DNA from: a virus
DNA: 31,428 nucleotides
UHGV virus genome: UHGV-0241329
Strand: one strand, 5' to 3'
The notes beneath the pieces are model-generated. The model had not been told where the DNA came from. It searched no databases and saw nothing but the letters and a program-made list of their open reading frames with translations. The translations under genes and the position numbers were made by a program. This document shows, in pieces, positions 8,849-27,081 of this stretch (within the stretch, counting starts at the first letter, position 1; every line of letters starts with the position of its first letter).

Positions 8849-9124
8849 ATGTCGATGTACACAACCGCCCAGCTGCTGGCGGCAAATGAGCAGAAATTTA
8901 AGTTTGATCCGCTGTTTCTGCGTCTCTTTTTCCGTGAGAGCTATCCCTTCACCACGGAGAAAGTCTATCTCTCACAAATTCCTGGACTGGTAAACATGGC
9001 GCTGTACGTTTCGCCAATTGTTTCCGGTGAGGTTATCCGTTCCCGTGGCGGCTCCACCTCTGAATTTACGCCGGGTTATGTCAAGCCGAAGCACTTAGCA
9101 TGGCTTTCTGAGGCTTTCGTGTAG
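8849..9124 (+). pseudogene. E: Major capsid protein E, 5' fragment (about 82 codons) truncated by the insertion and fused to 9 foreign codons (LAWLSEAFV)
   Basis: MSMYTTAQLLAANEQKFKFDPLFLRLFFRESYPFTTEKVYLSQIPGLVNMALYVSPIVSGEVIRSRGGSTSEFTPGYVKPKH matches recalled lambda gpE N-terminus, then diverges at 9094. Confidence 0.9.
9084..9093. repeat. attL core, AGCCGAAGCA (left copy of 10-bp direct repeat)
   Basis: Identical 10-mer at 9084..9093 and 20351..20360, exactly where lambda E homology stops and resumes. Confidence 0.8.
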
Positions 9125-9203
9125 TTGCTGGTTTTTACACTTAATCTTTTGATAATAAAGAATAAGTTTATCTGGCGCTTTCACTGAATTTTCCTCGTTA
9201 TCT

Positions 9204-9245
9204 GTGTGTTGCAATCATCTCTGTATTGCAGCTTGTATTGCTTTT
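9204..9245. repeat. Putative integrase arm-type sites (TGTATTGCA-like repeats) in attL arm
   Basis: TGTTGCAA / TGTATTGCA / TGTATTGC at 9207..9241; same motif twice near attR (20253..20273). Confidence 0.45.
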
Positions 9246-9256
9246 TGGGGCTAAAA

Positions 9257-10492
9257 ATGGCTGGCGAGAACAAACTGAGCGACAAAGCGCTTAAAGGATA
9301 TCTGGGGAAACCCAGAGAAAAGCAGATCACCATTGCTGATGGAAAGGGGCTTTCTATTCGTGTGAGTACTAAAGGGGCTGTGAGCTTTGTTTTCTTCTAC
9401 AGGTTAGCAGGTGGCCGGGCTGCTCCGGTCTGGCTAACGTTGGGTAAATATCCTGATATGTCACTCAAATAGGCAAGGGAAAAGCGCGACGAGTGCCGTG
9501 GTTGGTTGGTTGACAAACGTGATCCGCGTATCCAGATTAAGATTCAGGCTGAAGAACGCTTAAAGCCGGTCACAGTGGAGGATGCACTAAATTACTGGTA
9601 TGAAAATTACTGTAAGGTGCGTCGTAAAACTCATGCTGTAACGCTTGGCAGATTTCGAAAGCATATCTTTCCCTATATCGGTCATTTGCCCGTAAATGAC
9701 ACTCACCTATATGAATGGCTGGACTGTTTTGACCGAATTAAACGTAATGCACCAGTTATGGCGGCGTATGTTTTTTCTGACACTAAATTAGCTCTTCGTT
9801 TTTGTCGGGTACGCCAGTACGCGACGTGTGATGCTTTAAAGGATTTGCGCATGAGTGATGTGGGGCAGATTGCAGGTAAGCGGGATCGGGTTCTGGATGA
9901 AGCCGAACTGGGCCAGCTCTGGAAGGCAATTTTTGTCGAGCCTGATTTAAAACTAATGTCTGAATACACGCGAAAAATGTTTGTGCTTTGTACAGTATTT
10001 GGATGTCGAATGAGTGAAGCCCGATTATCTGAATGGAGCGAATGGGATCTCGAAAGTTGGGTTTGGACTGTACCAAAAGATCACTCAAAAACTGGTGTTG
10101 AAATCGTCAGACCAGTACCTGAAATTCTACGACAGTGGGTAACGGATGTTCACGAAGAGACAAAACATACTGGTTATGTGCTGGGAAGTCTGCGAATTAG
10201 AGAAAGCGTAAGCAAGATTGGGGGGAAAATCGGTAAACGTTTGGGCCATGAAAAACAATGGTCACTACACGACCTTAGAAGAACGCTATCTACTCATCTA
10301 AGTGATCTCGGTGTTGAATTTTATGTAGTAGAACAACTGTTAGGCCATGCGCTACCTGGCGTGGCAGGTGTTTACAACAGGAGTAAGTTTATGGCTAAAA
10401 AACTGGATGCTCTGGAACTCTGGACTACATATCTCAATAGCATCGCAGCTGCTGATTCAAAAGTGACAATCCTCAAACAAAAGGCTGGTTAA
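9257..10492 (+). pseudogene. int: Tyrosine integrase (P4-like family) interrupted by in-frame amber codon TAG at 9470..9472
   Basis: Two same-frame ORFs (9206..9472 and 9506..10492) separated only by TAG; N-terminal arm-binding-like domain; C-terminal catalytic motifs HDLRRT and LLGH..GVAGVYNRS. Confidence 0.8.
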
Positions 10493-10493
10493 C

Positions 10494-10721
10494 ATGAAAA
10501 AAATGGCAATTGTTGATAAAAAGGGTCTGGAGTACATTCCTAACATTGACCGAATGATCCGTGAGAAAGAATGTCGGGAGCTAACCACTCTTGCGAACAG
10601 CACACGCTGGAAGCTGGAGAAGGAAGGAAAATTTCCTAAGCGGATCAAGATTGGCGCTACTGCGGTAGCTTATCGTCTCTCCGAAGTTCAGGCATGGATT
10701 AAGGGAGAATGGAGTAATTAA
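10494..10721 (+). CDS. alpA: AlpA-family phage transcriptional regulator / excisionase-like HTH protein
   Basis: 75-aa ORF immediately after int; sequence resembles CP4-57 AlpA-type HTH proteins (LSEVQAWIKG-like C-terminus). Confidence 0.7.
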   Translation: MKKMAIVDKKGLEYIPNIDRMIREKECRELTTLANSTRWKLEKEGKFPKRIKIGATAVAYRLSEVQAWIKGEWSN

Positions 10722-10739
10722 ATAATAAGGTATTTCGAT

Positions 10740-11561
10740 ATGACAATGTGTGTTATTTGGAAGTCAGTTGATGGAACTATTTATGCCGCCACAGATTCTC
10801 GACTGAGCTTTGAAGAAAAAAAGTTAGATCGTTGCGTTAAAATATCCCGAATCACATGTCTTTTACATGAGCCTAGTGATGCAGTAGATACAAGTAAGAT
10901 ACTTGTTGATAAGCGTGAGATTGCTACATTATTCTGTGGAGGCTTTACAAATGCCTATATCATCAAGGAGAGCCTTACTGAGATTTTAAATAAAATAGTT
11001 CTCATGAGGGAATACTCCGGTGTGCCCTTTTCGGAAATTATAGATATAGCGTTTTCCATTTATGAAGATACATCAAGAGATATGTTTGCATCATTAATGG
11101 ACCAACGATTTGGATGTGTTTTTTACATGATAAGTTACTGCCCTGTATATAAGGAAATGCAAGCATTTAAATTTGAATTCAAAATAAATGAAAGCGGTAT
11201 TAACTATTATAAATCTAAACTTTTTGAAGATCGTAACTATGAGGTTAATGGAAGTGGGGTGAGGTACTTGGAACAAAATCATCGTATTGAAGATCTAGTT
11301 AAAGAAGCTTATCAGAAGAATAAATACACACCACTTCTAGATATACTTGAGTCCGTAATTAATGATGACGACTGTGACTCTGTTGGAGGTGCAATGCAAT
11401 ACATTTCATGTAATAAAGATAGTCTAAAATTGTGTTGTCATATGTTATTTGAAGAAAATAATTATAAGTATATGAAAGCTGGGGTGGACTTAAATGAACT
11501 CAATGAGAAGTTTATACCTTCTGGTTTGTTTTTTGAGACAGATGCAATCATCAAAAGATAA
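10740..11561 (+). CDS. Hypothetical protein, AT-rich cargo gene
   Basis: 273-aa ORF, visibly AT-rich; no motif recognised; N-terminus MTMCVIW... gives only a faint hint of an N-terminal Cys nucleophile. Confidence 0.55.
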   Translation: MTMCVIWKSVDGTIYAATDSRLSFEEKKLDRCVKISRITCLLHEPSDAVDTSKILVDKREIATLFCGGFTNAYIIKESLTEILNKIVLMREYSGVPFSEIIDIAFSIYEDTSRDMFASLMDQRFGCVFYMISYCPVYKEMQAFKFEFKINESGINYYKSKLFEDRNYEVNGSGVRYLEQNHRIEDLVKEAYQKNKYTPLLDILESVINDDDCDSVGGAMQYISCNKDSLKLCCHMLFEENNYKYMKAGVDLNELNEKFIPSGLFFETDAIIKR

Positions 11562-11866
11562 ACGATAACCGACTTTGATTGTGATAATTTTATCAAGATT
11601 ATGATGAATGCTGCAGTATATCTAACATGCTGCAGTTAACTCAATTTGTATTATCGCTAATATTTTTAATAACAAGGATGTTTATTGCTTTTTTATTTGA
11701 GAGTGAACGTCTAACCATTGTTGTTCTTAGTTCTCATGGAGAGATTGGAGCTTAAAATACGCAATGTTTTGAAATCAGCGCAACTATATTCCGTAATTGT
11801 TCTTTGTCGTTCTTGCGTGGCACGGTGATACACCTCTCATGTCGGTTGTTTTTTTGAACGCAGAAA

Positions 11867-11896
11867 CATAAAACAAAGGCGACCGGGATGGTCGCC
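11867..11896 (-). terminator. Intrinsic terminator downstream of the SWIM gene
   Basis: GGCGACC-GGGAT-GGTCGCC perfect 7-bp stem; on reverse strand followed by TTTGTTTTAT. Confidence 0.6.
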
Positions 11897-11964
11897 AGTG
11901 GCATAACACTAAAATTGAGCGTATTCAGAATACCAAGTGTCGGCTGGTGGACAATGGAATCAGT

Positions 11965-12321
11965 TCAATATTTAGGTGGTTCAACAAGAGCGTTTATCAT
12001 TGCTCTCAAATTATCGCGAACACTTATCCAAGTCTGTTCTGCTCGTTCTAACTCATTAGTGTACAGCTTTAATGTTTTATCTATGCCATATGTGGCTATT
12101 AAATTTATAGCTTCTTGTAACTTTTCGGGATTATTCCTTCTTGGGGGAGTGAATATACCGCGGATTTTTCCGGTAATTAAAGCTTTACGGTGTCTACATA
12201 GAATACCTTTACTTCCTGCTGGACAATTACAAGTCATGATTAGCGAGCCAGAATCGTTTGATACAGTGACTATGTATACATCCAAACTACTGCTACTTGT
12301 TGCGAAGAATTCGTATTTCAT
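11965..12321 (-). CDS. Small SWIM-type zinc-finger protein
   Basis: 118-aa ORF with CNC-x9-CRH (CxCx(n)CxH) motif; co-oriented 28 bp downstream of RHH gene. Confidence 0.55.
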   Translation of the reverse strand: MKYEFFATSSSSLDVYIVTVSNDSGSLIMTCNCPAGSKGILCRHRKALITGKIRGIFTPPRRNNPEKLQEAINLIATYGIDKTLKLYTNELERAEQTWISVRDNLRAMINALVEPPKY

Positions 12322-12348
12322 GTGTTAGCTCCTTGACTTCAATTATTC

Positions 12349-12543
12349 TTATCCTTTTGGTTCAATACCGCGCCGTAGCAGCTCTTTGCGCCCTAACTCT
12401 TTAAGCCAGTTGGCAAGGCTTACCCCATCGTTACTGGCTTCGTTATCAAACTGCTCCTTCAATTCAGGAACTATGCGCATATGGAACGGTGGGGCCTTTC
12501 CTGTGCCTTTTTGTTTTTTATCGCGCTTAATAACCGTTGACAT
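12349..12543 (-). CDS. Ribbon-helix-helix (Arc/CopG-like) DNA-binding protein, candidate element repressor
   Basis: 64-aa ORF; FHMRIVPELKEQF beta-strand followed by helices; start codon overlaps a palindromic operator. Confidence 0.5.
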   Translation of the reverse strand: MSTVIKRDKKQKGTGKAPPFHMRIVPELKEQFDNEASNDGVSLANWLKELGRKELLRRGIEPKG

Positions 12544-12600
12544 GTGTACACCTATAGCGTTATGTTTTTATTCGATAGGTGTACACCTTAACATGTGTGC
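12541..12600. promoter_or_regulatory. Divergent control region with palindromic operators
   Basis: GTGTACACCTAT (12544..12555) and its inverted copy ATAGGTGTACAC (12575..12586), each containing palindrome GTGTACAC; ACATGTGT repeated; TTGACA at 12537..12542. Confidence 0.5.
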
Positions 12601-12878
12601 ATTTAAAAACGCAACGCCCCGCAGTGCGGGAACACATGCAGGGCGTCTAACCACCAACGATAGCAACAGTATCGAGGTAGCTATGAGAAATCATACCACA
12701 CACCCGCAAGGGCGGGACTCGCACAACCTGAATAAATTCACTTGGCGCTTTATCGCCCTGAGTGCGGCTAAACCGCGCATGCTTACCATCGTGGTCACCA
12801 GCGAGCAGGAAGACCGCCAGCAATCCCCAACTGGCTGCGTGATGATATTCGCCGCCCGTATTCGTCAGGAGGTGTGCC

Positions 12879-13103
12879 ATGAATGATCTTTATTTTAAAG
12901 TGCTGACACATGCTGAAAACGCGCTCGTTTGTGGCAAAAATATGCGAGAAATCTTATCAACCTGGCTTGATGGGACAACAAATGCGGAACACGATGAACG
13001 GGATGCTAATTTAGCTGGAGCGTTAATTACGTTACTTGATCCTGTCATCAAAGAGCTGGATGAAGCTATAAAAATACACGACCAGAGCTATACCGGAGAA
13101 TAA
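12879..13103 (+). CDS. Hypothetical small protein
   Basis: 74-aa ORF, first gene of the rightward operon leading to primase. Confidence 0.45.
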   Translation: MNDLYFKVLTHAENALVCGKNMREILSTWLDGTTNAEHDERDANLAGALITLLDPVIKELDEAIKIHDQSYTGE

Positions 13104-13106
13104 AAA

Positions 13107-13394
13107 ATGAAAAATAAATTTTCTGGCTTTATTGCCAGCGGTCAAACTCATTCAAAAATCAGCCTTGGGGATATTTTCAAAGACAGCTATGGCTATCGGG
13201 TAAAGATTATTTCGGTTGATGATCGTCGTGTCTCTTATTTGCGTGATGGTTATGATTTTGAATGTGTTATGCCGCGTCAGCAGTTCGAAAGAGATTTCAT
13301 TCTGGTAAAAAATTGCAAGACAGATAATCAGAGGCGTGCCGCAGGCTATATCCGTAAAATTCGGGCAATGTTAGTTGCCGGAGGTAACAAATGA
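13107..13394 (+). CDS. Hypothetical small protein
   Basis: 95-aa ORF; 3' end overlaps primase start (ATGA). Confidence 0.45.
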   Translation: MKNKFSGFIASGQTHSKISLGDIFKDSYGYRVKIISVDDRRVSYLRDGYDFECVMPRQQFERDFILVKNCKTDNQRRAAGYIRKIRAMLVAGGNK

Positions 13395-15211
13395 AACGTG
13401 CTCCGAACTTAAAATACCAACCGCGCGACAAAATGACGGAAGTCATCATTTTTGCTGGCAGTGATGCCTGGAGCCATGCAAAAGAATGGAATGAATGGGC
13501 AGGTAAGCATATTGCAGCAGATGATACACCACCAGTCATTCTGGGTACGGAACAACTGGAAAACCTGGATGATATGCAAATTATCGATGAAGGCCGTCAT
13601 TATGTGCGTGTTTATCGTGCCGGAAAGATTGCAGAGAAAAGTCTGACGAAGGTTGCGACATTACTTGCTATTGCAGGCGTAAAGGAAGCACGTTGTTACC
13701 GTAGCTTTGTTGATCGAGAGCCTGAAGACTGGACTCCGCGCCTTGTCGGCCTAAAAGCTGAAGCGGAGCATGGGGAAAGTCTGGTGATTGAACTGCCAGT
13801 GAAGAAGGCAGAGCGCAAAAATGACGAGCGTGCTTCATCTTTGGCGTTGAATCAGATGGGGGCCAGCCAGCGCGGTGAAGTTCTCCTTGCACATTACGGC
13901 GGTGAACTGGCAATCAATGCCGACTCTGACACCGTTCATCATTACAACGGCGTTGTATGGGAGCCGGTTCAGGATAAAGAGTTACAGCGTTCTATGGCGC
14001 AGATTTTCATTGATGCGGAGATCAGCTATTCGCAGAACGCTATTAAATCGGCGGTAGATACCATGAAGTTAAGTTTGCCTGTAATGGGGAATACAGCCCG
14101 TAACCTGATTGGATTCAGTAACGGGGTATTTGATACCAGAACTGGTAATTTTCGGGAGCATAACAAAAACGACTGGTTGTTAATTGCCAGTGAATTACCT
14201 TTCAGCCCACCAGCAGAGGGGGAAACGCTGGCAACACATGCGCCGAATTTCTGGAAGTGGTTGCGCCGTTCGGTGGCTGAGAATGACCGCAAGGCAGATC
14301 GCGTACTGGCGGCATTATTCATGGTGCTGGCGAACCGGTACGACTGGCAGTTATTCATTGAGGTAACAGGGCCGGGGGGAAGTGGTAAAAGTGTGATGGC
14401 GGAGATTTGCACCATGCTGGCGGGTAAGGCTAATACAGTATCAGCAAGCATGAAGGCGCTGGAAGATGCAAGGGAACGTGCGTTAGTGGTTGGCTTTTCG
14501 CTGATTATCATGCCGGATATGACCCGCTACGCTGGTGATGGGGCAGGGATTAAGGCCATTACAGGCGGTGACAAGGTGGCAATTGACCCGAAACACAAAG
14601 CCCCCTATTCAACGCGTATTCCGGCAGTAGTGCTGGCGGTTAACAATAACGCCATGTCATTCAGTGACCGCAGCGGGGGGATCTCACGTCGTCGGGTGAT
14701 ATTCAATTTTTCGGAAGTTGTACCGGAGAACGAACGCGATTCGATGCTGGCGGAAAAAATAGAAGGTGAGCTGGCGGTAGTGATTCGTCATCTGCTTACA
14801 AGGTTTGCTGATCAGGACGAAGCCAGACGCCTGTTATATGAGCAGCAGAAATCTGAAGAAGCACTGGCGATAAAGCGAGAGGGGGATTCGCTGGTGGACT
14901 TCTGCGGTTATCTCATGGCATCGGTAATGTGTGATGGCCTGTTAGTGGGTAATGCTGAAATTGTGCCATTCAGCCCACGCAGGTATCTCTATCATGCCTA
15001 TCTGGCTTATATGAGGGCACATGGGTTTGGTAAACCTGTAACACTGACGCGCTTCGGTAAAGATATGCCGGGGGCAATGGCGGAATATGGCAGGGAGTAT
15101 ATGAAACGGAAAACGAAGCACGGTTTGCGTTCAAACGTGACACTGACGGAGGAATCAGAAGACTGGATGCCATCATGTGTATCGGTCACTAATGACGATA
15201 GCAAAAATTAA
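13391..15211 (+). CDS. Primase-helicase replication protein (P4 alpha / PICI Pri-Rep-like)
   Basis: 606-aa ORF; Walker A EVTGPGGSGKS in C-terminal half; followed directly by iteron origin. Confidence 0.75.
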   Translation: MKRAPNLKYQPRDKMTEVIIFAGSDAWSHAKEWNEWAGKHIAADDTPPVILGTEQLENLDDMQIIDEGRHYVRVYRAGKIAEKSLTKVATLLAIAGVKEARCYRSFVDREPEDWTPRLVGLKAEAEHGESLVIELPVKKAERKNDERASSLALNQMGASQRGEVLLAHYGGELAINADSDTVHHYNGVVWEPVQDKELQRSMAQIFIDAEISYSQNAIKSAVDTMKLSLPVMGNTARNLIGFSNGVFDTRTGNFREHNKNDWLLIASELPFSPPAEGETLATHAPNFWKWLRRSVAENDRKADRVLAALFMVLANRYDWQLFIEVTGPGGSGKSVMAEICTMLAGKANTVSASMKALEDARERALVVGFSLIIMPDMTRYAGDGAGIKAITGGDKVAIDPKHKAPYSTRIPAVVLAVNNNAMSFSDRSGGISRRRVIFNFSEVVPENERDSMLAEKIEGELAVVIRHLLTRFADQDEARRLLYEQQKSEEALAIKREGDSLVDFCGYLMASVMCDGLLVGNAEIVPFSPRRYLYHAYLAYMRAHGFGKPVTLTRFGKDMPGAMAEYGREYMKRKTKHGLRSNVTLTEESEDWMPSCVSVTNDDSKN

Positions 15212-15220
15212 ACTTATGGA

Positions 15221-15455
15221 ATAACTGTTCACCACTGTTCACCCTGTCATAAATATCTTTTATATCAGTATATTATAGGGTGAACAGTTATTTATGAACT
15301 GTTCACCAAACTATTCACTGTTCACCTTTTTGATTGTTTATTGAGCTTCAAGGGTGAACAGTGGTGAACAGTTGGTGAATAGTTTTTGTGAAACTGTTCA
15401 CCCATTAACATTATGAATTAAAAGAGAAAATATCAAAAGGTGAACAGGTGAAGGG
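15221..15455. repeat. ori: Replication origin with iterons (TGTTCACC / GGTGAACA), at least 9 copies in both orientations
   Basis: CTGTTCACC at 15225 and 15235; GGTGAACAG at 15278, 15352, 15362, 15439; further copies at 15299, 15318, 15394; interspersed AT-rich stretches. Confidence 0.75.
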
Positions 15456-15498
15456 TTAAAACGCAAAAATTTTAATTTACTGCTGTGAGATAAAGCCT

Positions 15499-15744
15499 AT
15501 GACAGCGAAGCACACAAAAAAATCACAATCGCACGCCCTTGATTTGACGGAACACTGGTTAAGGGTGTCGATAAAAATCATCGACCGCAACGCCGGGGAA
15601 GGATACGCGAAAGCACATCCCGAACTGATTAGCGCATTCATGACAACGGCGGCTGCAAACTTTGCCACTCTGACCGAACGGGAGATTGCTGAAGCGGAGG
15701 AAGTGACAACAATCAATATTAAGTCCGGAGAGCAGGCAGCATGA
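15499..15744 (+). CDS. Hypothetical protein
   Basis: 81-aa ORF between ori and ssb; ATGA overlap with ssb. Confidence 0.45.
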   Translation: MTAKHTKKSQSHALDLTEHWLRVSIKIIDRNAGEGYAKAHPELISAFMTTAAANFATLTEREIAEAEEVTTINIKSGEQAA

Positions 15745-16190
15745 CGGCGCAAATATCAGTTTACGGGCGGTTGGTGGACGACCCGCAGACAAAACAGACC
15801 AGCAAGAGCACCCCCATGACGCTGGCACGTATGGCGGTATCACTGCCCTGCAGTCAGTCGGATGACGGTCAGGCGACGATGTGGTTATCTGTCCTGGCGT
15901 TTGGCAGACAAGCCGACGCGCTGGCAAAGCATCACAAAGGCGAACTCCTGAGCGTGGCGGGTAATATGCAGGTGAGCCAGTGGACTGGACAGAACGGTGA
16001 AACGCGGCAGGGCTGGCAGGTTATCGCAGACAGCGTAATCAGTGCGCGAACGGTGCGACCGGGCGGCAAAAAAGGTCAACAGGGTCAGGCTACTGACGCA
16101 CTGAACAGAGCAAAACAACAGGCAGATCAGCAAGGAAGCCATCCACCAGTGGGAGATAATGAGCAATGGGGAGATGATATTCCGTTTTAA
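15741..16190 (+). CDS. ssb: Single-stranded DNA-binding protein
   Basis: 149-aa ORF; Gly/Gln-rich linker and acidic C-terminal tail ...GDDIPF, typical of SSB. Confidence 0.8.
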   Translation: MTAQISVYGRLVDDPQTKQTSKSTPMTLARMAVSLPCSQSDDGQATMWLSVLAFGRQADALAKHHKGELLSVAGNMQVSQWTGQNGETRQGWQVIADSVISARTVRPGGKKGQQGQATDALNRAKQQADQQGSHPPVGDNEQWGDDIPF

Positions 16191-16402
16191 ATATTGCCAA
16201 TAAAAAAGGCCGGAAAAAAAATAAATTTTCCGGCATGCTACATAAATCCCGACCAAAGGGAGTGAAGATATTAACACTAATTATCCGCGCTGAAGTTGTT
16301 ATCCCAAAACTTTATACAACATTGCACTCGGTTGCATGTATTCGCATGATAAATATCGGTGATAGCATATATCCACAATTATTTTTAATGAATGCAAAGA
16401 GG

Positions 16403-17449
16403 ATGCGTATGGTTGATTTATATTCGCCTACCCAGCTTGTACAGGTGGTTAATGCTGTAGATGTACAAAAACAACTAAATGCGTTGTTTACCAGTTTGTT
16501 TTTTACTCGCTCGGTAATGTTTGAATCGCGCGATATTATTCTTGATACAATCGACGATCCAAATATCCCAATTGCAGCGTTTTGTTCTCCTATGGTGGGT
16601 AGTAAAGTTTCACGTGACGAAGGGTACGAATCAAAAACAATTCGTCCAGGCTATATGAAGCCGAAAAGCAGCATTGATCCAAATAAGTTAGCTGTGCGCC
16701 CTGCTGGTGTATCACCTGAGCAATACAATGCTTTTGGAGCGCGTAATATTAAAGTTAAACAGGCGATTGTAAATCAGGCTAAAGCTATTCGTGCACGTAT
16801 TGAATGGCTTGCCGTTCAGGCAATCACAACGGGGAAAAATATCATTGAGGGCGATGGTATTGAACGTTATGAGCTGGACTGGAATATTAAACCACAAAAT
16901 ATCATCACTCAGTCTGGCGGTGCTGAGTGGTCAGGTAAGGATAAAGAAACTTTTGATCCAAATGATGATATTGAGAGCTACGCAGAATTTAGTGAGGGCG
17001 TCACTAATATCATCATTATGGGCGGTAATGTATGGAAGAAATACCGTTCATTCAGAGCGATAAAAGAGGCTCTGGATACCCGTCGTGGTTCTAATTCCGA
17101 ACTGGAAACGGCCCTTAAAGACCTTGGTGATTCGGTGAGTTTTAAAGGGTATATGGGCGATGTTGCGATTGTTGTATACAGCGGGCGTTATACCGATGAG
17201 GACGGAACTGAAAAACATTTCCTTGATCCTGATTTGATGGTGCTTGGCAATACAGCTCTTCAGGGGATTGTCGCCTATGGCGGTATTCAGGATCCGGAGC
17301 TAATCCGAATGGGGCTGACTAAAGCCGAACTTGCACCGAAAAACTATATTGTGCCTGGTGATCCGGCTATTGAATATGTGCAGACACATTCAGCACCACA
17401 GCCAATACCGGCCCGCATCAATCGTTTTGTTACCGTTCGCATTGGCTAA
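16403..17449 (+). CDS. Major capsid protein, divergent homolog of lambda gpE, encoded by the element
   Basis: Aligns along its length with lambda gpE, e.g. ITQSGGAEWSGKDKETFDPNDDIESYA vs ITQSGGTEWSKRDKSTYDPTDDIEAYA, and LDTRRGSNSELETA identical; start uncertain among ATG 16388/16403/16409. Confidence 0.8.
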   Translation: MRMVDLYSPTQLVQVVNAVDVQKQLNALFTSLFFTRSVMFESRDIILDTIDDPNIPIAAFCSPMVGSKVSRDEGYESKTIRPGYMKPKSSIDPNKLAVRPAGVSPEQYNAFGARNIKVKQAIVNQAKAIRARIEWLAVQAITTGKNIIEGDGIERYELDWNIKPQNIITQSGGAEWSGKDKETFDPNDDIESYAEFSEGVTNIIIMGGNVWKKYRSFRAIKEALDTRRGSNSELETALKDLGDSVSFKGYMGDVAIVVYSGRYTDEDGTEKHFLDPDLMVLGNTALQGIVAYGGIQDPELIRMGLTKAELAPKNYIVPGDPAIEYVQTHSAPQPIPARINRFVTVRIG

Positions 17450-17458
17450 GGGGGAGCA

Positions 17459-17800
17459 ATGGCTACTCATTACACTGAACTCATGGCTGGCACTGAAGCA
17501 CTGGTGACTACGCTGGGGATATTTTCAGCTAATAAAGGGGTAATTCCTGCATTTACGCCACTGATGCAGGAAGATGCAACAGGTGCACTGGTGGTATGGG
17601 ATGGTTCGAGCGTAGGTAAAGCGGTTTATGTTTCCGCTGTACAAATCGACACCGCGAAAAAAACACAGGCTCAGGTCTATAAGACAGGTGTCTTAAATGT
17701 TGATGCTCTGAACTGGCCTGAGTCTGTAAAAGAACTGTCAGTAAAGATTGCAGCGTTTGTTGGCTCAGGTATTTCTGTTCAGCCGCTGGCTCGTGTGTAA
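17459..17800 (+). CDS. Head decoration protein, divergent homolog of lambda gpD
   Basis: 113 aa; LVVWDGSSVGKAVYVSAVQ...KTGVLNVDALNWPE...AAFVGSGISV parallels lambda gp[20 protein letters not shown]...[14 protein letters not shown]...[11 protein letters not shown]. Confidence 0.65.
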   Translation: MATHYTELMAGTEALVTTLGIFSANKGVIPAFTPLMQEDATGALVVWDGSSVGKAVYVSAVQIDTAKKTQAQVYKTGVLNVDALNWPESVKELSVKIAAFVGSGISVQPLARV

Positions 17801-17811
17801 AGGGGGATACA

Positions 17812-18195
17812 ATGCAGAATGATTACAATGACCTTAAGCCAATTGCCGAAATGATGTACCCGAATCCAGCTGTAGAGGAATTAAAAGCTATCGCTGACAA
17901 AATGTGTTTAAGCGAGCGCCTTGTTGATATGAATCAGGTGATGGAAATTACAACCCTGAGTCGGCGTACACTGCTAAACCTTGAGGCTAGTGGAGAGTTC
18001 CCGGAGCGTGTGCAGGTTACGGAAGGGCGTAAGGCCTGGTATTTAAGTGAAGTGATCGACTGGATAAATAATATTCCTCGCGCTTCTGAATATTGCCGCG
18101 TACCTGTCCCAAAAAAGCCAGATGCGGCGCTATGCCTCAAGATTGAGCGTGTACGCCGCAATGCACGGGATGGTCGCTATAAGCTGATTGGTTGA
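17812..18195 (+). CDS. HTH protein (AlpA-like DNA-binding segment) immediately upstream of element cos
   Basis: 127 aa; segment MNQVMEITTLSRRTLLNLEASGEFPERVQVTEGRKAWYLSEVIDWINN resembles AlpA/MerR-type HTH. Confidence 0.5.
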   Translation: MQNDYNDLKPIAEMMYPNPAVEELKAIADKMCLSERLVDMNQVMEITTLSRRTLLNLEASGEFPERVQVTEGRKAWYLSEVIDWINNIPRASEYCRVPVPKKPDAALCLKIERVRRNARDGRYKLIG

Positions 18196-18214
18196 TGAAA
18201 TTAGGGCCCGCTCT

Positions 18215-18425
18215 GGCTGGCGGGTCCTTTCTGGCGATCTGACAGGCTACGGGGCGTCAGGCGCGCAGATTCTTGCTATTTATGACAATTTTCTGCGATT
18301 TGCCGTTTCCGTTCTTCTTCCTCGTAACTTAGTGTTTTTATTAGAAATACCCTCTAAAAAGAAAGGAAATGACAGGTGCTGAAAACAGGCTTTTGGGTCT
18401 CCGTCATTTCCTTTCTCATTTTTAT
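18215..18425 (+). other. cos: Element cos site, homologous to prophage cos but with divergent cohesive-end sequence GGGCGTCAGGCG (18252..18263)
   Basis: Aligns with 2690..2900: cosQ-like GCGGGTCCTTTCTGGCGATCTGACAGGCTACG and cosB-like GTTTCCGTTCTTCTTC / AAAGAAAGGAAATGACAGGTGCTGAAA conserved; cohesive-end 12-mer differs at 5 of 12 positions. Confidence 0.8.
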
Positions 18426-18679
18426 CTAAAAGTAAGCATCGAGGCCACCCCAAATGCTTATAGAGGTTATTGTGTCACTATGCGTACTGTTCAGGATTTA
18501 AAGTAGCAAGACATCTAGTTGCTTGCAGTTTTGGCGAATGATGTGAGGTTCTGCTATAACAGATAATGTAACAAGTTACTGATATATTCTGTTATGGTTG
18601 ACTTTAAATTTTGTTGCTCCTTCAATGAATTATTGAGGGGTGAAAATTAGGCGTGATAAGAATCGATCACGCCTATTGT

Positions 18680-19996
18680 TTATCTTGAAGAAATTTTAGG
18701 CAGGCTTTTTAAAAATAAATCTTTATTTCTACTTGCATCAGTTAAAAGTGTTAGGAATATTTTATCTGTAGGAGTGCATGTGCTCTTGTTTAACAGTAAT
18801 TCACCAAGTTTCTGTAATCGAGAGAATTGCCCATCCTCTTGGATTCTGTGACGAAGTGTACTATCATTTTTAATAACATCAACAAATGCAGAAACCATGT
18901 TAATATCAAAGTGTTCAAACATTTCCAATATTAAAGGTGCAGCCCCATTTGAATAAAAATTCTTCCTTCCATACTGATAGCTGAAACCACGATGGCCAAC
19001 ATAAGTTTTTGTAATGGCTGAAACAAATTCAACAATATTATCTTCAGGGACGAAACTCGAGAATGGTAATAATTGGGTTACGATTTTTTCCTCTTCTGAC
19101 CAATTATCTAAAGACTCGGTGAGTTTATTAATGAGAGGCTCAATAATAACTTTTCGGGATGCAGGGCTAATATACATCAGTCCATCTACCAATAGTATGA
19201 ATTGTTGTGCCTTCTCTATCTTATTGTTGTTTCCTGAAACTAAATACTTGTCAAATTGTTGGCCGACTTTACGTCGGTCGTCTTTTGAAAGTAATGTCCA
19301 TAAAATAGGTGCGCAAAATTCAATGTTGTTTCTGAGTTCACTTGATATATTGGATGAGCAGTATGTGCCAAAAAAACGAGAGGATAATTCACTGATATAA
19401 ATTGCAGGTAGATCTGAAAAGGCTTGCTTAACTGCCAGGCTATTTTTATTAAATGTTGCCGAATCCATTTCTGAAAGATATGTAGATATATCTATGATGG
19501 CTGGTGGAAACTCTTTAGAAAGAACGTATTTATTACAATCATTAATCAGGTTCACTACTTTGATTAAATCAGGGTCGCTACTTTGTGGATGTCCACCAAA
19601 TAGATTCCTGGTTTCTCTAGCTTGTTGTAATAGTTTCTGACCTTCTCGATCGATAACTCCTATTTTAAATGCTCCATCTATTAAATCAAAGTCGCTCACA
19701 TAATCCTGAAAATCTTCATACGTTTTAATTTCTTTTTTTTGTTTACACTCTTTGTTGAATAGATCTAGGCTACGATGAATTATCTTTTGACGTAAATCAT
19801 CAACTACAGCATTCCAGTAAGCAGTGATGGCACTTCTATAACCTTTTACAGGAAGAACTCTTATTGCTTCTGAAATATATGGGCAGTCAACTACATCATG
19901 CCTCACAGTTGAGAGCGCAGTTTGTAACAATGTAACTTCTGTAGAGTCTAGTGGAGTTGGCTGCACTAAATGAGAACTTATCTCTGTACCCTTCAT
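18680..19996 (-). CDS. Hypothetical protein, AT-rich cargo gene at attR end
   Basis: 438-aa ORF on reverse strand, visibly AT-rich; no motif recognised; hairpin AGGCGTGAT-N8-ATCACGCCT at 18649..18674 just 3' of it. Confidence 0.55.
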   Translation of the reverse strand: MKGTEISSHLVQPTPLDSTEVTLLQTALSTVRHDVVDCPYISEAIRVLPVKGYRSAITAYWNAVVDDLRQKIIHRSLDLFNKECKQKKEIKTYEDFQDYVSDFDLIDGAFKIGVIDREGQKLLQQARETRNLFGGHPQSSDPDLIKVVNLINDCNKYVLSKEFPPAIIDISTYLSEMDSATFNKNSLAVKQAFSDLPAIYISELSSRFFGTYCSSNISSELRNNIEFCAPILWTLLSKDDRRKVGQQFDKYLVSGNNNKIEKAQQFILLVDGLMYISPASRKVIIEPLINKLTESLDNWSEEEKIVTQLLPFSSFVPEDNIVEFVSAITKTYVGHRGFSYQYGRKNFYSNGAAPLILEMFEHFDINMVSAFVDVIKNDSTLRHRIQEDGQFSRLQKLGELLLNKSTCTPTDKIFLTLLTDASRNKDLFLKSLPKISSR

Positions 19997-20350
19997 TTCA
20001 GGATTTTCCTATTCTTTTCCATTTTTCTACTCTATTGAATTTGAAAAAGATATCAAGTTCGTTCTTGCCAGTTTTAAGTGGAAAAATTGATGTTACCTTA
20101 TTGAGATAAGGCAGTTCTCTATAACCTATTGTTATTAATTATTTTTATTTTTTTTCCAATTCAGATGTTTAGGGCTAAGAAGTTAAGTGAGAGTTCACAG
20201 CAAAACTGCTTCTAGTTCCTCACCGAGGAGCAAAAGGTTAAGACAGCGTACTTTGTATTGCACAATGTATTGCAGAACCTTCTTTCGAAAGCTACAACAA
20301 TCAATTTTATATTGAAAATTCAATCATATCCTTTCGATATTGACTCATAT

Positions 20351-20360
20351 AGCCGAAGCA
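20351..20360. repeat. attR core, AGCCGAAGCA (right copy of 10-bp direct repeat)
   Basis: Identical to 9084..9093; lambda E homology resumes here. Confidence 0.8.
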
Positions 20361-21141
20361 TGAGGTGAATCCGCAGATGACCCTGCGTCGCCTGCCGGAT
20401 GAAGATCCGCAGAATCTGGCGGACCCGGCTTACCGCCGCCGTCGCATCATCCTGCAGAACATGCGTGACGAAGAGCTGGCCATTGCTCAGGTCGAAGAGA
20501 TGCAGGCAGTTTCTGCCGTGCTCAAGGGCAAATACACCATGACCGGTGAAGCCTTCGATCCGGTTGAGGTGGATATGGGCCGCAGTGCGGCGAACAACAT
20601 CACGCAGTCCGGCGGCACGGAGTGGAGCAAGCGTGACAAGTCCACGTATGACCCGACCGACGATATCGAAGCCTACGCGCTGAACGCCAGCGGCGTGGTG
20701 AATATCATCGTGTTTGATCCGAAAGGCTGGGCGCTGTTCCGTTCCTTCAAAGCCGTCAAGGAGAAGCTGGATACCCGTCGCGGCTCTAATTCCGAGCTGG
20801 AGACAGCGGTAAAAGACCTGGGCGAAGCGGTGTCCTATAAGGGGATGTATGGCGATACGGCGATCGTCGTGTATTCCGGACAGTACGTGGAAAACGACGT
20901 CAAAAAGAACTTCCTGCCGGACAACACGATGGTGCTGGGGAACACTCAGGCACGCGGTCTGCGCACCTATGGCTGCATTCAGGATGCGGACGCACAGCGC
21001 GAAGGTATTAACGCCTCTGCCCGCTACCCGAAAAACTGGGTGACCACCGGCGATCCGGCGCGTGAGTTCACCATGATTCAGTCAGCACCGCTGATGCTGC
21101 TGGCTGATCCTGATGCGTTCGTGTCCGTACAACTGGCGTAA
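20353..21141 (+). pseudogene. E: Major capsid protein E, 3' fragment (from codon about 80) lacking its native start
   Basis: PKHEVNPQMTLRRLPDEDPQNLADPAYRRRR...VSVQLA matches recalled lambda gpE C-terminal 260 aa; in-frame TAG at 20350..20352 immediately upstream. Confidence 0.9.
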
Positions 21142-24527: not shown

Positions 24528-27081
24528 ACCGGTAGGCGATCTGGTCGTTGATTTGAGTCTGGATGCGGCCAGATTTGACGAGCAGATGGCCAGAGTCAGG
24601 CGTCATTTTTCCGGTACGGAAAGTGATGCGAAAAAAACAGCGGCAGTCGTTGAACAGTCGATGAACCGGCAGGCGCTGGCTGCACAGAAAGCGGGAATTT
24701 CCGTCGGGCAGTATAAAGCCGCCATGCGTATGCTGCCTGCGCAGTTCACTGACGTGGCCACGCAGCTTGCAGGCGGGCAAAGTCCGTGGCTGATCCTGCT
24801 GCAACAGGGGGGGCAGGTGAAGGACTCCTTCGGCGGGATGATCCCCATGTTCCGGGGGCTTGCCGGTGCGATCACCCTGCCGATGGTGGGGGCCACCTCG
24901 CTGGCGGTGGCGACCGGTGCGCTGGCGTATGCCTGGTATCAGGGCAACTCAACCCTGTCCGATTTCAACAAAACGCTGGTCCTTTCCGGCAATCAGGCCG
25001 GGCTGACGGCAGATCGTATGCTGGTCCTGTCCAGAGCCGGGCAGGCGGCAGGGCTGACGTTTAACCAGACCAGCGAGTCACTCAGCGCACTGGTTAAGGC
25101 GGGGGTAAGCGGTGAGGCTCAGATTGCGTCCATCAGCCAGAGTGTGGCGCGTTTCTCCTCTGCATCCGGCGTGGAGGTGGACAAGGTCGCTGAAGCCTTC
25201 GGGAAGCTGACCACTGACCCGACGTCGGGGCTGACAGCGATGGCGCGCCAGTTCCATAACGTGACGGCGGAGCAGATTGCGTATGTTGCTCAGTTGCAGC
25301 GTTCCGGCGAAGAAGCCGGGGCATTGCAGGCGGCGAACGAGGCCGCGACGAAAGGGTTTGATGACCAGACCCGCCGCCTGAAAGAGAACATGGGCACGCT
25401 GGAAACCTGGGCAGACAGGACAGCACGGGCATTCAAATCCATGTGGGATGCGGTGCTGGATATTGGTCGTCCTGATACCGCGCAGGAGATGCTGATTAAG
25501 GCAGAGGCCGCGTTTAAGAAAGCGGACGATATCTGGAATCTGCGCAAGGATGATTATTTTGTTAACGATGAAGCGCGGGCGCGTTACTGGGATGATCGTG
25601 AAAAGGCCCGTCTTGCGCTTGAAGCCGCCCGAAAGAAGGCTGAGCAGCAGAGTCAACAGGACAAAAATGCGCAGCAGCAGAGCGATACCGAAGCGTCACG
25701 GCTGAAATATACCGAAGAGGCGCAGAAGGCTTACGAACGGCTGCAGACGCCGCTGGAGAAATATACCGCCCGTCAGGAAGAACTGAACAAGGCACTGAAA
25801 GACGGGAAAATCCTGCAGGCGGATTACAACACGCTGATGGCGGCGGCGAAAAAGGATTATGAAGCGACGCTGAAAAAGCCGAAACAGTCCGGCGTGAAGG
25901 TGTCTGCGGGCGATCGTCAGGAAGACAGTGCTCATGCTGCCCTGCTGACGCTTCAGGCAGAACTCCGGACGCTGGAGAAGCATGCCGGAGCAAATGAGAA
26001 AATCAGCCAGCAGCGCCGGGATTTGTGGAAGGCGGAGAGTCAGTTCGCGGTACTGGAGGAGGCGGCGCAACGTCGCCAGCTGTCTGCACAGGAGAAATCC
26101 CTGCTGGCGCATAAAGATGAGACGCTGGAGTACAAACGCCAGCTGGCTGCACTTGGCGACAAGGTTACGTATCAGGAGCGCCTGAACGCGCTGGCGCAGC
26201 AGGCGGATAAATTCGCACAGCAGCAACGGGCAAAATGGGCCGCCATTGATGCGAAAAGCCGGGGGCTGACTGACCGGCAGGCAGAACGGGAAGCCACGGA
26301 ACAGCGCCTGAAGGAACAGTATGGCGATAATCCGCTGGCGCTGAATAACGTCATGTCAGAGCAGAAAAAGACCTGGGCGGCTGAAGACCAGCTTCGCGGG
26401 AACTGGATGGCAGGCCTGAAGTCCGGCTGGAGTGAGTGGGAAGAGAGCGCCACGGACAGTATGTCGCAGGTAAAAAGTGCAGCCACGCAGACCTTTGATG
26501 GTATTGCACAGAATATGGCGGCGATGCTGACCGGCAGTGAGCAGAACTGGCGCAGCTTCACCCGTTCCGTGCTGTCCATGATGACAGAAATTCTGCTTAA
26601 GCAGGCAATGGTGGGGATTGTCGGGAGTATCGGCAGCGCCATTGGCGGGGCTGTTGGTGGCGGCGCATCCGCGTCAGGCGGTACAGCCATTCAGGCCGCT
26701 GCGGCGAAATTCCATTTTGCAACCGGAGGATTTACGGGAACCGGCGGCAAATATGAGCCAGCGGGGATTGTTCACCGTGGTGAGTTTGTCTTCACGAAGG
26801 AGGCAACCAGCCGGATTGGCGTGGGGAATCTTTACCGGCTGATGCGCGGCTATGCCACCGGCGGTTATGTCGGTACACCGGGCAGCATGGCAGACAGCCG
26901 GTCGCAGGCGTCCGGGACGTTTGAGCAGAATAACCATGTGGTGATTAACAACGACGGCACGAACGGGCAGATAGGTCCGGCTGCTCTGAAGGCGGTGTAT
27001 GACATGGCCCGCAAGGGTGCCCGTGATGAAATTCAGACACAGATGCGTGATGGTGGCCTGTTCTCCGGAGGTGGACGATGA
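24520..27081 (+). CDS. H: Tape measure protein
   Basis: 853 aa, lambda gpH length and position. Confidence 0.95.
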   Translation: MAEPVGDLVVDLSLDAARFDEQMARVRRHFSGTESDAKKTAAVVEQSMNRQALAAQKAGISVGQYKAAMRMLPAQFTDVATQLAGGQSPWLILLQQGGQVKDSFGGMIPMFRGLAGAITLPMVGATSLAVATGALAYAWYQGNSTLSDFNKTLVLSGNQAGLTADRMLVLSRAGQAAGLTFNQTSESLSALVKAGVSGEAQIASISQSVARFSSASGVEVDKVAEAFGKLTTDPTSGLTAMARQFHNVTAEQIAYVAQLQRSGEEAGALQAANEAATKGFDDQTRRLKENMGTLETWADRTARAFKSMWDAVLDIGRPDTAQEMLIKAEAAFKKADDIWNLRKDDYFVNDEARARYWDDREKARLALEAARKKAEQQSQQDKNAQQQSDTEASRLKYTEEAQKAYERLQTPLEKYTARQEELNKALKDGKILQADYNTLMAAAKKDYEATLKKPKQSGVKVSAGDRQEDSAHAALLTLQAELRTLEKHAGANEKISQQRRDLWKAESQFAVLEEAAQRRQLSAQEKSLLAHKDETLEYKRQLAALGDKVTYQERLNALAQQADKFAQQQRAKWAAIDAKSRGLTDRQAEREATEQRLKEQYGDNPLALNNVMSEQKKTWAAEDQLRGNWMAGLKSGWSEWEESATDSMSQVKSAATQTFDGIAQNMAAMLTGSEQNWRSFTRSVLSMMTEILLKQAMVGIVGSIGSAIGGAVGGGASASGGTAIQAAAAKFHFATGGFTGTGGKYEPAGIVHRGEFVFTKEATSRIGVGNLYRLMRGYATGGYVGTPGSMADSRSQASGTFEQNNHVVINNDGTNGQIGPAALKAVYDMARKGARDEIQTQMRDGGLFSGGGR

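Follow-up and report, generated by a model that had tools for sequence, protein, structure and literature searches.

We analysed a 31,428-bp stretch of viral DNA, UHGV virus genome UHGV-0241329 (referred to here at its full length as the window), and concluded that a 233-bp repeat array at positions 15224–15456 is very probably the cognate replication origin of an 11.3-kb satellite, read by the 606-amino acid (aa) protein that is encoded just upstream. Judging from its junctions and gene content, the satellite (9084–20360) is a helper-embedded phage-inducible chromosomal island (PICI) of the 11capE type, located in the capsid gene of a lambdoid prophage. A preliminary description, based upon the letters and their open reading frames (ORFs), had placed an iteron replication origin at 15221–15455, directly after the gene for a "P4-alpha-like primase-helicase". 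Support for the iteron origin came from the octamer annotated in satellite phage P4, from a match of the protein to the P4 structure 1KA8, from a layout that recurs in P4 and in the PICI EcCICFT073, and from covariation between protein and repeats in 80 relatives.

The array comprises 12 sites, nine of which are exact copies of the octamer TGTTCACC (or GGTGAACA, when inverted) and three of which are degenerate. The exact copies lie between 15226 and 15446, with five on the + strand and four on the − strand, which agrees with the "at least nine" copies in both orientations that had been described; the boundaries given for the array were also accurate. The octamer occurs 10 times in the window, and the lone copy outside of the array is at 26769. 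By comparison, dinucleotide-preserving shuffles of the whole window contained 1.0 ± 0.98 copies (maximum of 4), and none of 100 shuffles reached 10. A repeat search, which the preliminary description had suggested as a check, recovered the 10-mer ACTGTTCACC as the true repeat unit; the repeats are far more numerous than chance would give. There are eight exact copies of the 10-mer, all within 15224–15402, and four near copies, at 15310, 15374, 15439, and 15447, and adjacent iterons start 10–11 bp from one another. The array begins 13 bp 3′ of the TAA stop codon (15209–15211) of the 606-aa ORF (13391..15211, + strand) and ends 43 bp before the next ORF (start at 15499). Its G+C content is 28–37%, compared to ~46–58% in the flanking genes. 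Scans for exact and near copies revealed no second iteron cluster in the element, or in the window.

The iterons are arranged in two modules, each of which is read here on the + strand. The left module (15224..15326) starts with two direct iterons, both exact copies of TGTTCACC (15226..15233 and 15236..15243), followed by a 35-bp AT-rich spacer (15244..15278; 80% A+T), one exact inverted iteron (15279..15286, − strand; GGTGAACA on the + strand), 13 bp, and three further direct iterons. Of these three, the outer two are exact (15300..15307 and 15319..15326), whilst the middle one (15312..15319; TATTCACT) is degenerate; copies reading TATTCAC are common at this position in relatives. The right module (15353..15456) has three inverted iterons on the − strand, two exact (15353..15360 and 15363..15370) and one with a single mismatch (15374..15381; GGTGAATA on the + strand), then one exact direct iteron (15395..15402), a second AT-rich spacer of 36 bp (15403..15438; 83% A+T), and two inverted iterons, the first of which is an exact octamer (15439..15446) and the second degenerate (15447..15454; GGTGAAGG on the + strand). 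A GTGAA copy is also found at the position of this last iteron in relatives and in the P4 cis required region for replication (crr). The array is closed by an A-tract/T-tract, TAAAACGCAAAAATTTTAATTT (15457..15482), and a tract of like composition is found at the corresponding place in most relatives and in the units of the P4 crr. The first spacer contains the least stable 30-mer duplex of the window (15249–15278; −27.0 kcal/mol, vs. a mean of −41.5 and a standard deviation of 4.1) and is our proposed DNA-unwinding element; the duplex stability of the second spacer ranks seventh among non-overlapping segments of the window.

The gene that precedes the array belongs to those annotated as Pri-Rep, or "DNA primase family protein". 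In the 606-aa product, Pfam recognizes D5_N (residues 163–292), an SF3 helicase core (DUF5906, residues 326–434), and Pox_D5 (residues 497–592). The Walker A motif, GPGGSGKS, is at residues 327–334 (14369..14392, + strand), and its columns are invariant across five relatives. A phmmer search matched residues 498–594 (14882..15172, + strand) to 1KA8, in which the phage P4 α protein has been crystallized as its C-terminal domain, with an E-value of 1.9e-24, and we refer to this region as the putative origin-binding (winged-helix) domain. The helicase region also matched PDB entry 7OLA (E 2.6e-10), which we take to be SaPI5 Rep. Overall identity to P4 α is 50.6% over residues 149–596, and TIGR01613 ("primase, P4 family", C-terminal region) was matched with an E-value of 3.6e-27, under the family cut-off. 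Given the SF3 core and the match to 1KA8, these comparisons showed the predicted product to be a helicase with a P4-type origin-binding domain.

The same cannot be said of the "primase" label. The first ~150 residues did not align with the Zn-finger/TOPRIM primase region of α, and the N-terminal region had no match in Pfam or NCBIfam. The possibility that the N-terminal domain (residues 1 to ~130) is a relative of the P4 α primase region was considered and rejected, with an hhalign probability of 0.3%. The invariant residues of the domain (F21, A22, G23, S24, D25, A26, W27, R73, A77, and G78) include neither a TOPRIM glutamate nor a DxD motif, and a full-length AlphaFold model made without an alignment was unusable (predicted local distance difference test score, pLDDT, of 33). 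The label is therefore not supported, since the Zn-finger/TOPRIM region of α is absent and the domain lacks the TOPRIM acidic residues; of the "P4-alpha-like primase-helicase" the helicase and the likeness to α stand, but the primase does not. The module of helicase, binding domain, and origin is found with three different N-terminal domains. As a separate observation, six database proteins (P0011, P0018, P0019, P0017, P0043, and P0054) have the N-terminal domain fused to SSB, capsid E, or PerC; these look like satellite deletion derivatives without helicase, binding domain, or origin.

The GenBank record of P4 annotates an 8-bp "ori type 1 repeat", the octamer of which is TGTTCACC, in both its origin (9086–9809) and in crr, and the latter is located directly after the α gene. 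All 11 exact copies of TGTTCACC in P4 are within ori or crr. The C-terminal domain of α reportedly binds these type 1 iterons. When read in the direction of the α gene, the P4 ori core shows a pair of direct iterons, then 35 bp of AT-rich sequence and a single inverted iteron, and, after another 14 bp, three direct iterons. Our left module aligned with this region (P4 9296–9424, − strand; alignment A1) at 61.9% identity, with the order and spacing of the iterons alike. The right module aligned with both of the 120-bp units of the P4 crr (alignment A2), at 55.8% and 56.6% identity, and the second spacer scored 30 against the P4 crr spacer, compared to 15.0 ± 2.8 for shuffled sequences, none of which (0/2000) scored as well. 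Both modules are collinear with their P4 counterparts and have the same orientation relative to the gene. As the left module matches the ori core and the right module matches a crr unit, we consider that counterparts of ori and crr lie side by side in the window, such that the array would combine the two cis elements of P4 in a single 233-bp block, the left half of which resembles the ori core and the right half crr.

The two systems thus share the octamer TGTTCACC in both orientations at a spacing of 10–11 bp, an initiator with an SF3 helicase and an origin-binding domain, and an array directly after the gene, as crr is after α. They differ in that the ori and the duplicated crr of P4 are ~4.5 kb apart, whereas one ori-like and one crr-like module are contiguous here. 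In addition, the P4 type 2 repeat is absent, there is no terminator between the gene and the array, and the Zn-finger/TOPRIM primase domain of α (~330 aa) is replaced by an unrelated domain of ~130 aa. The genes sid, delta, psu, and cnr are also missing from the satellite, in which the genes are ordered as in a PICI.

Among PICIs, EcCICFT073 is the only relative with an experimentally tested origin. Its pri-ori segment maintains a temperature-sensitive plasmid (Fillol-Salom et al., 2018; PMC6092414) and, at the restrictive temperature, deletion of pri abolished colonies, whilst deletion of ori significantly reduced them (PMC6092414). The origins of E. coli PICIs are described as always having two sets of iterons around an AT-rich region, directly 3′ of pri-rep (PMC6092414), an organization for which no parallel is said to be known among other replicons (Fillol-Salom et al., 2018; PMC6092414). 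The array in the window conforms to this description of Gram-negative PICI origins: it is immediately 3′ of pri-rep and its iterons flank AT-rich spacers. Similarly, int, alpA, and pri-rep are all on the + strand, the attachment (att) blocks enclose 11.3 kb, within the ~10–20 kb usual for such elements, and the Pri-Rep proteins are homologous. The EcCICFT073 Pri-Rep is 44% identical over 598 aligned residues (E 4e-172), with the match extending over the full length and including the N-terminal domain. The gene order is also the same (int, alpA, ..., DUF4222, pri-rep, array, small ORF, SSB, ..., capsid, decoration). The block after the EcCICFT073 pri-rep gene has a pair of direct iterons separated by an AT spacer from a single inverted iteron, and then three direct iterons, and its second half ends with two inverted iterons and an A/T tract. 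The position and layout of the array, with its iterons in two groups on either side of an AT-rich region, are therefore alike in the two elements. In contrast, the EcCICFT073 iteron core is CTGTCTACC/CTATCTACC, rather than TGTTCACC, its binding domain has diverged, and it is integrated into the chromosome, rather than within a prophage gene.

A more distant parallel is provided by the pathogenicity islands of Staphylococcus aureus (SaPIs), in which iteron sets flank an AT-rich region immediately 3′ of the gene for a self-loading helicase (PMC6092414). The origin logic is the same and the helicase core matches 7OLA, but SaPIs differ in their iterons and in the DNA-binding domain, are only distantly similar, and have a Gram-positive host. 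A 16.5-kb element that encodes a capsid, and was deposited as phage vB_KppS-Ant, also has the module. In Pasteurella phage Pmp8 (34% identity) there was no obvious array after the gene, and the rule that the array follows the gene may therefore fail in the most distant relatives. Separately, the full-size Serratia phage Scapp (L005, 2930–3240) encodes a 38%-identical primase and, after its gene, carries copies of a different repeated motif, AAAGTGCA/TGCACTTT, on both strands, which suggests the same origin logic with another specificity.

To extend the comparison, one genome per species was scanned, and this yielded 80 Enterobacterales loci (L006–L085) with 62–86% identity. The array follows the gene in all 80. 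Iteron-like repeats were the most frequent 8-mers within 450 bp 3′ of the gene in most of these loci, and there were only 0–2 copies of TGTTCACC in the remaining ~6 kb of each locus. The iteron core was TGTTCACC in 62 loci, TGTCTACC in five, TCTCCACC in eight, TGTCCGCC/TGTCCACC in four, and TATCTACC in one, and all five classes are built on one common scaffold. In the protein, the iteron class is followed most closely by residue 542 and by the segment 566–585, both within the putative binding domain. Mean normalized mutual information with the iteron class was 0.37 at residues 566–585, vs. 0.08–0.18 along the helicase, values that are consistent with recognition of the iterons by the binding domain but are no proof of it, since shared ancestry inflates mutual information. 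Class-specific insertions are found at residues ~574–578, with five additional aa in most class B and D members and one additional aa in class C. In same-class relatives from other genera, the iteron cores were 92% conserved, vs. 75% for the spacers, and none of 232 circular shifts was as extreme. The lengths of the two spacers (34–35 and 36 bp) were kept in 11 relatives, at an A+T content of 66–89%. The gene and array together are present in 502 of 5426 complete E. coli genomes.

The satellite itself splits the prophage capsid gene E at codon ~82, and the 10-bp identity block AGCCGAAGCA is found at both junctions, attL (9084..9093), within gene E, and attR (20351..20360), where gene E resumes. 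When joined, the two capsid fragments restore a lambda E-like protein. The element is thus inserted within a late gene of the prophage, at a short identity block and in the same orientation, as is characteristic of a helper-embedded PICI, and its attL junction is common to 173 of the 5426 genomes. The identical locus in E. coli ET665 is annotated with lambda-like head genes and a capsid lacking its C-terminus, followed by integrase, AlpA, ..., DUF4222, and "primase", and then by a small ORF, SSB, a second capsid, decoration, AlpA-like, ..., a capsid lacking its N-terminus, and tail genes. The closest named satellite is Eco567.11capE, a helper-embedded PICI of E. coli NRG857c with a 10-bp att identity block (Mageeney et al., 2023; PMC10111431). 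Both elements use the same insertion point in a lambda-like capsid gene E and the same 10-bp att block. The initiators are identical at 604 of 606 residues, and the origin region of 11capE is identical to window positions 15200–15500 at 300 of 301, with the sole difference in the array at 15363, the first base of the second iteron of the right module. The two elements differ in the genes between alpA and icd, and in that 11capE has HEPN and DUF262 genes, whereas the window has a 438-aa ORF (18680–19996, − strand; no Pfam or PADLOC match, PHROG 27609). From its position, this ORF apparently occupies a variable accessory slot, possibly one for defence genes.

The early region of the satellite encodes the integrase (9257..10492, + strand; with an amber codon at 9470–9472, codon 72), the AlpA regulator/excisionase (10494..10721, + strand; Pfam Phage_AlpA, E 6e-15), and a SWIM zinc-finger protein (11965–12321, − strand), which has a weak match to PADLOC PDC-S62. 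The DUF4222 gene (13107..13394, + strand) overlaps the start codon of the initiator gene (ATGA), and also precedes the initiator in EcCICFT073 and 11capE. It was considered as a possible counterpart of P4 Cnr, the copy-number regulator that precedes α, and this was rejected as there is no similarity. An 81-aa ORF directly follows the array (15499..15744, + strand), with the same protein accession in 11capE and ET665, and is followed in turn by an SSB homologue of the replication module (15741..16190, + strand; Pfam SSB, E 4.5e-15; PHROG 44), a capsid E homologue (16235–17449), a decoration D homologue (17459–17800), and a second AlpA-family gene (17812–18195). A 204-bp region of the satellite (18220–18423) is 82.5% identical to the prophage cos region (2684–2887). 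An exact copy of the lambda cosN 12-mer is present in the prophage, at 2716–2727, and a search of the satellite for the 12-mer gave no match at ≤2 mismatches.

Based on these comparisons, we infer a pathway of protein binding, spacer melting, helicase loading, and priming. Once the satellite operon is expressed, the 606-aa protein would use its C-terminal winged-helix domain to bind the 10-bp iterons (core TGTTCACC), which are one helical turn from their neighbours and form sets that flank the 35- and 36-bp AT spacers. The protein assembled on the iterons would melt a spacer, most likely that at 15244–15278. The SF3 helicase part of the same protein would then load itself at the melted spacer, the SSB homologue of the satellite would coat the single strands, and theta-type replication would follow, as in P4. 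Given that there is no α-type primase domain, the primers might be supplied by host DnaG, or the N-terminal domain may have an activity that provides them.

Several observations weigh against the array being an origin, or at least one that works in the present copy. It does not have the DnaA box, IHF site, or GATC that are found beside the iterons of a classical plasmid iteron origin: there was no DnaA box (TTATNCACA, ≤1 mismatch), IHF site (WATCAANNNNTTR), or GATC in 15150–15550, and a scan for oriC 13-mers gave nothing meaningful. The covariation between iterons and protein is confounded by phylogeny. In P4, the region after α is crr and not the site of initiation, so that position alone cannot fix the start point. 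Within the satellite, a C-to-T change at 9470, which is absent from 11capE and ET665, converts CAG to TAG in the integrase gene, and this amber stop makes excision of the present copy doubtful. Finally, replication of 11capE after excision is ambiguous, with attP approximately equal to attB in two of three experiments (PMC10111431). Because of these measurements, autonomous replication of the element after excision, which the preliminary description had taken the array to indicate, rests on analogy. The more serious caveat concerns the activity of the array, and not its identity.

The alternative that survives best is that the array is by ancestry a genuine origin that no longer functions in the present copy, in a decaying satellite that is copied passively along with the prophage or the chromosome. 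We consider this unlikely, if still the most serious of the alternatives. It is favoured by the integrase amber stop, by the ambiguous replication of 11capE, and by the database relatives in which the N-terminus of the initiator is fused to SSB, capsid, or PerC, and which point to deletions. However, the initiator ORF is intact and, like the array region, nearly identical to that of 11capE, the other genes of the replication module are all open, and the single C-to-T change could be a sequencing error or be suppressed.

It is considerably less probable that the array is no more than a cis enhancer or a site of copy control of the crr kind, working through handcuffing or looping, with replication starting elsewhere in the satellite or in the helper prophage. 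Such a role would fit the P4 record, in which crr directly follows α and the origin is 4.5 kb away, as well as the resemblance of the right module to crr, spacer included, and the possibility that 11capE is copied passively within its helper prophage. Against this, there is no second iteron cluster from which replication might start and the left module repeats the layout of the P4 ori core, and these two findings together make a crr-only role unlikely. Furthermore, in EcCICFT073 a plasmid could reportedly be maintained by the pri gene and the one intergenic block alone (PMC6092414).

Less probable again is that the array is an operator for a regulator (AlpA, the second AlpA-like protein, or another) that controls the operon of the 81-aa ORF, SSB, and capsid, with no role in replication. 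The array does lie between two co-oriented gene blocks, and the element has two AlpA-family genes. However, no sigma-70-like promoter or terminator was predicted in 14900–15800, the P4 record annotates the same octamer as an origin repeat, and the initiator next to the array has a C-terminal domain that varies with the iteron class, and it is the P4 annotation and this covariation with the neighbouring protein that make us regard an operator as very unlikely. Lastly, we give almost no weight to the idea of a structured RNA or a single-strand hairpin (a terminator, small RNA, or single-strand origin) built from the inverted copies, for even though the + strand folds at −102 kcal/mol (z = −9.0 vs. 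shuffles), this energy is an automatic consequence of repeating one 10-mer in inverted orientation, pairing gives no reason for tandem direct copies, in relatives the direct and inverted copies have all switched to a single new octamer, a pattern that marks a protein site rather than helix-by-helix compensation, and there was neither an Rfam match at E ≤ 0.1 in 9000–20500 nor a terminator-like site.

An origin of this kind is already known, given that the origin has been tested in a relative and that the same module is present in a named, published satellite; both the origin family and the element have been published, and the current view of satellites is unchanged by our result. In the literature searched, we found no statement of the collinearity with P4 ori and crr, or of the series of iteron and binding-domain specificities, and as far as we could find, these constitute the modest novel part of the work. 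Taken jointly, the observations allow a broader proposal, which we put forward tentatively and regard as possible rather than probable. In this proposal, the origins of Gram-negative PICIs, including the helper-embedded and the capsid-forming ones, would consist of an ori core and one crr unit placed head-to-tail. They would be read by one α-type winged-helix domain, in which small insertions and deletions in residues 566–585 re-program the specificity, giving at least five octamer classes on a fixed scaffold. The α primase would have been replaced by a TOPRIM-like domain without catalytic acidic residues, hence priming by the host or helper.

For the biology of these elements, the analysis locates the probable cis-acting replication site of a satellite that is carried by a few percent of sequenced E. 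coli. By tying the replication module of PICIs to the α, ori, and crr of P4, it may make the biochemistry of P4 transferable to PICIs, and the iteron classes on one scaffold would offer a simple system in which to study changes in initiator–origin specificity, and from which to derive orthogonal replicons.
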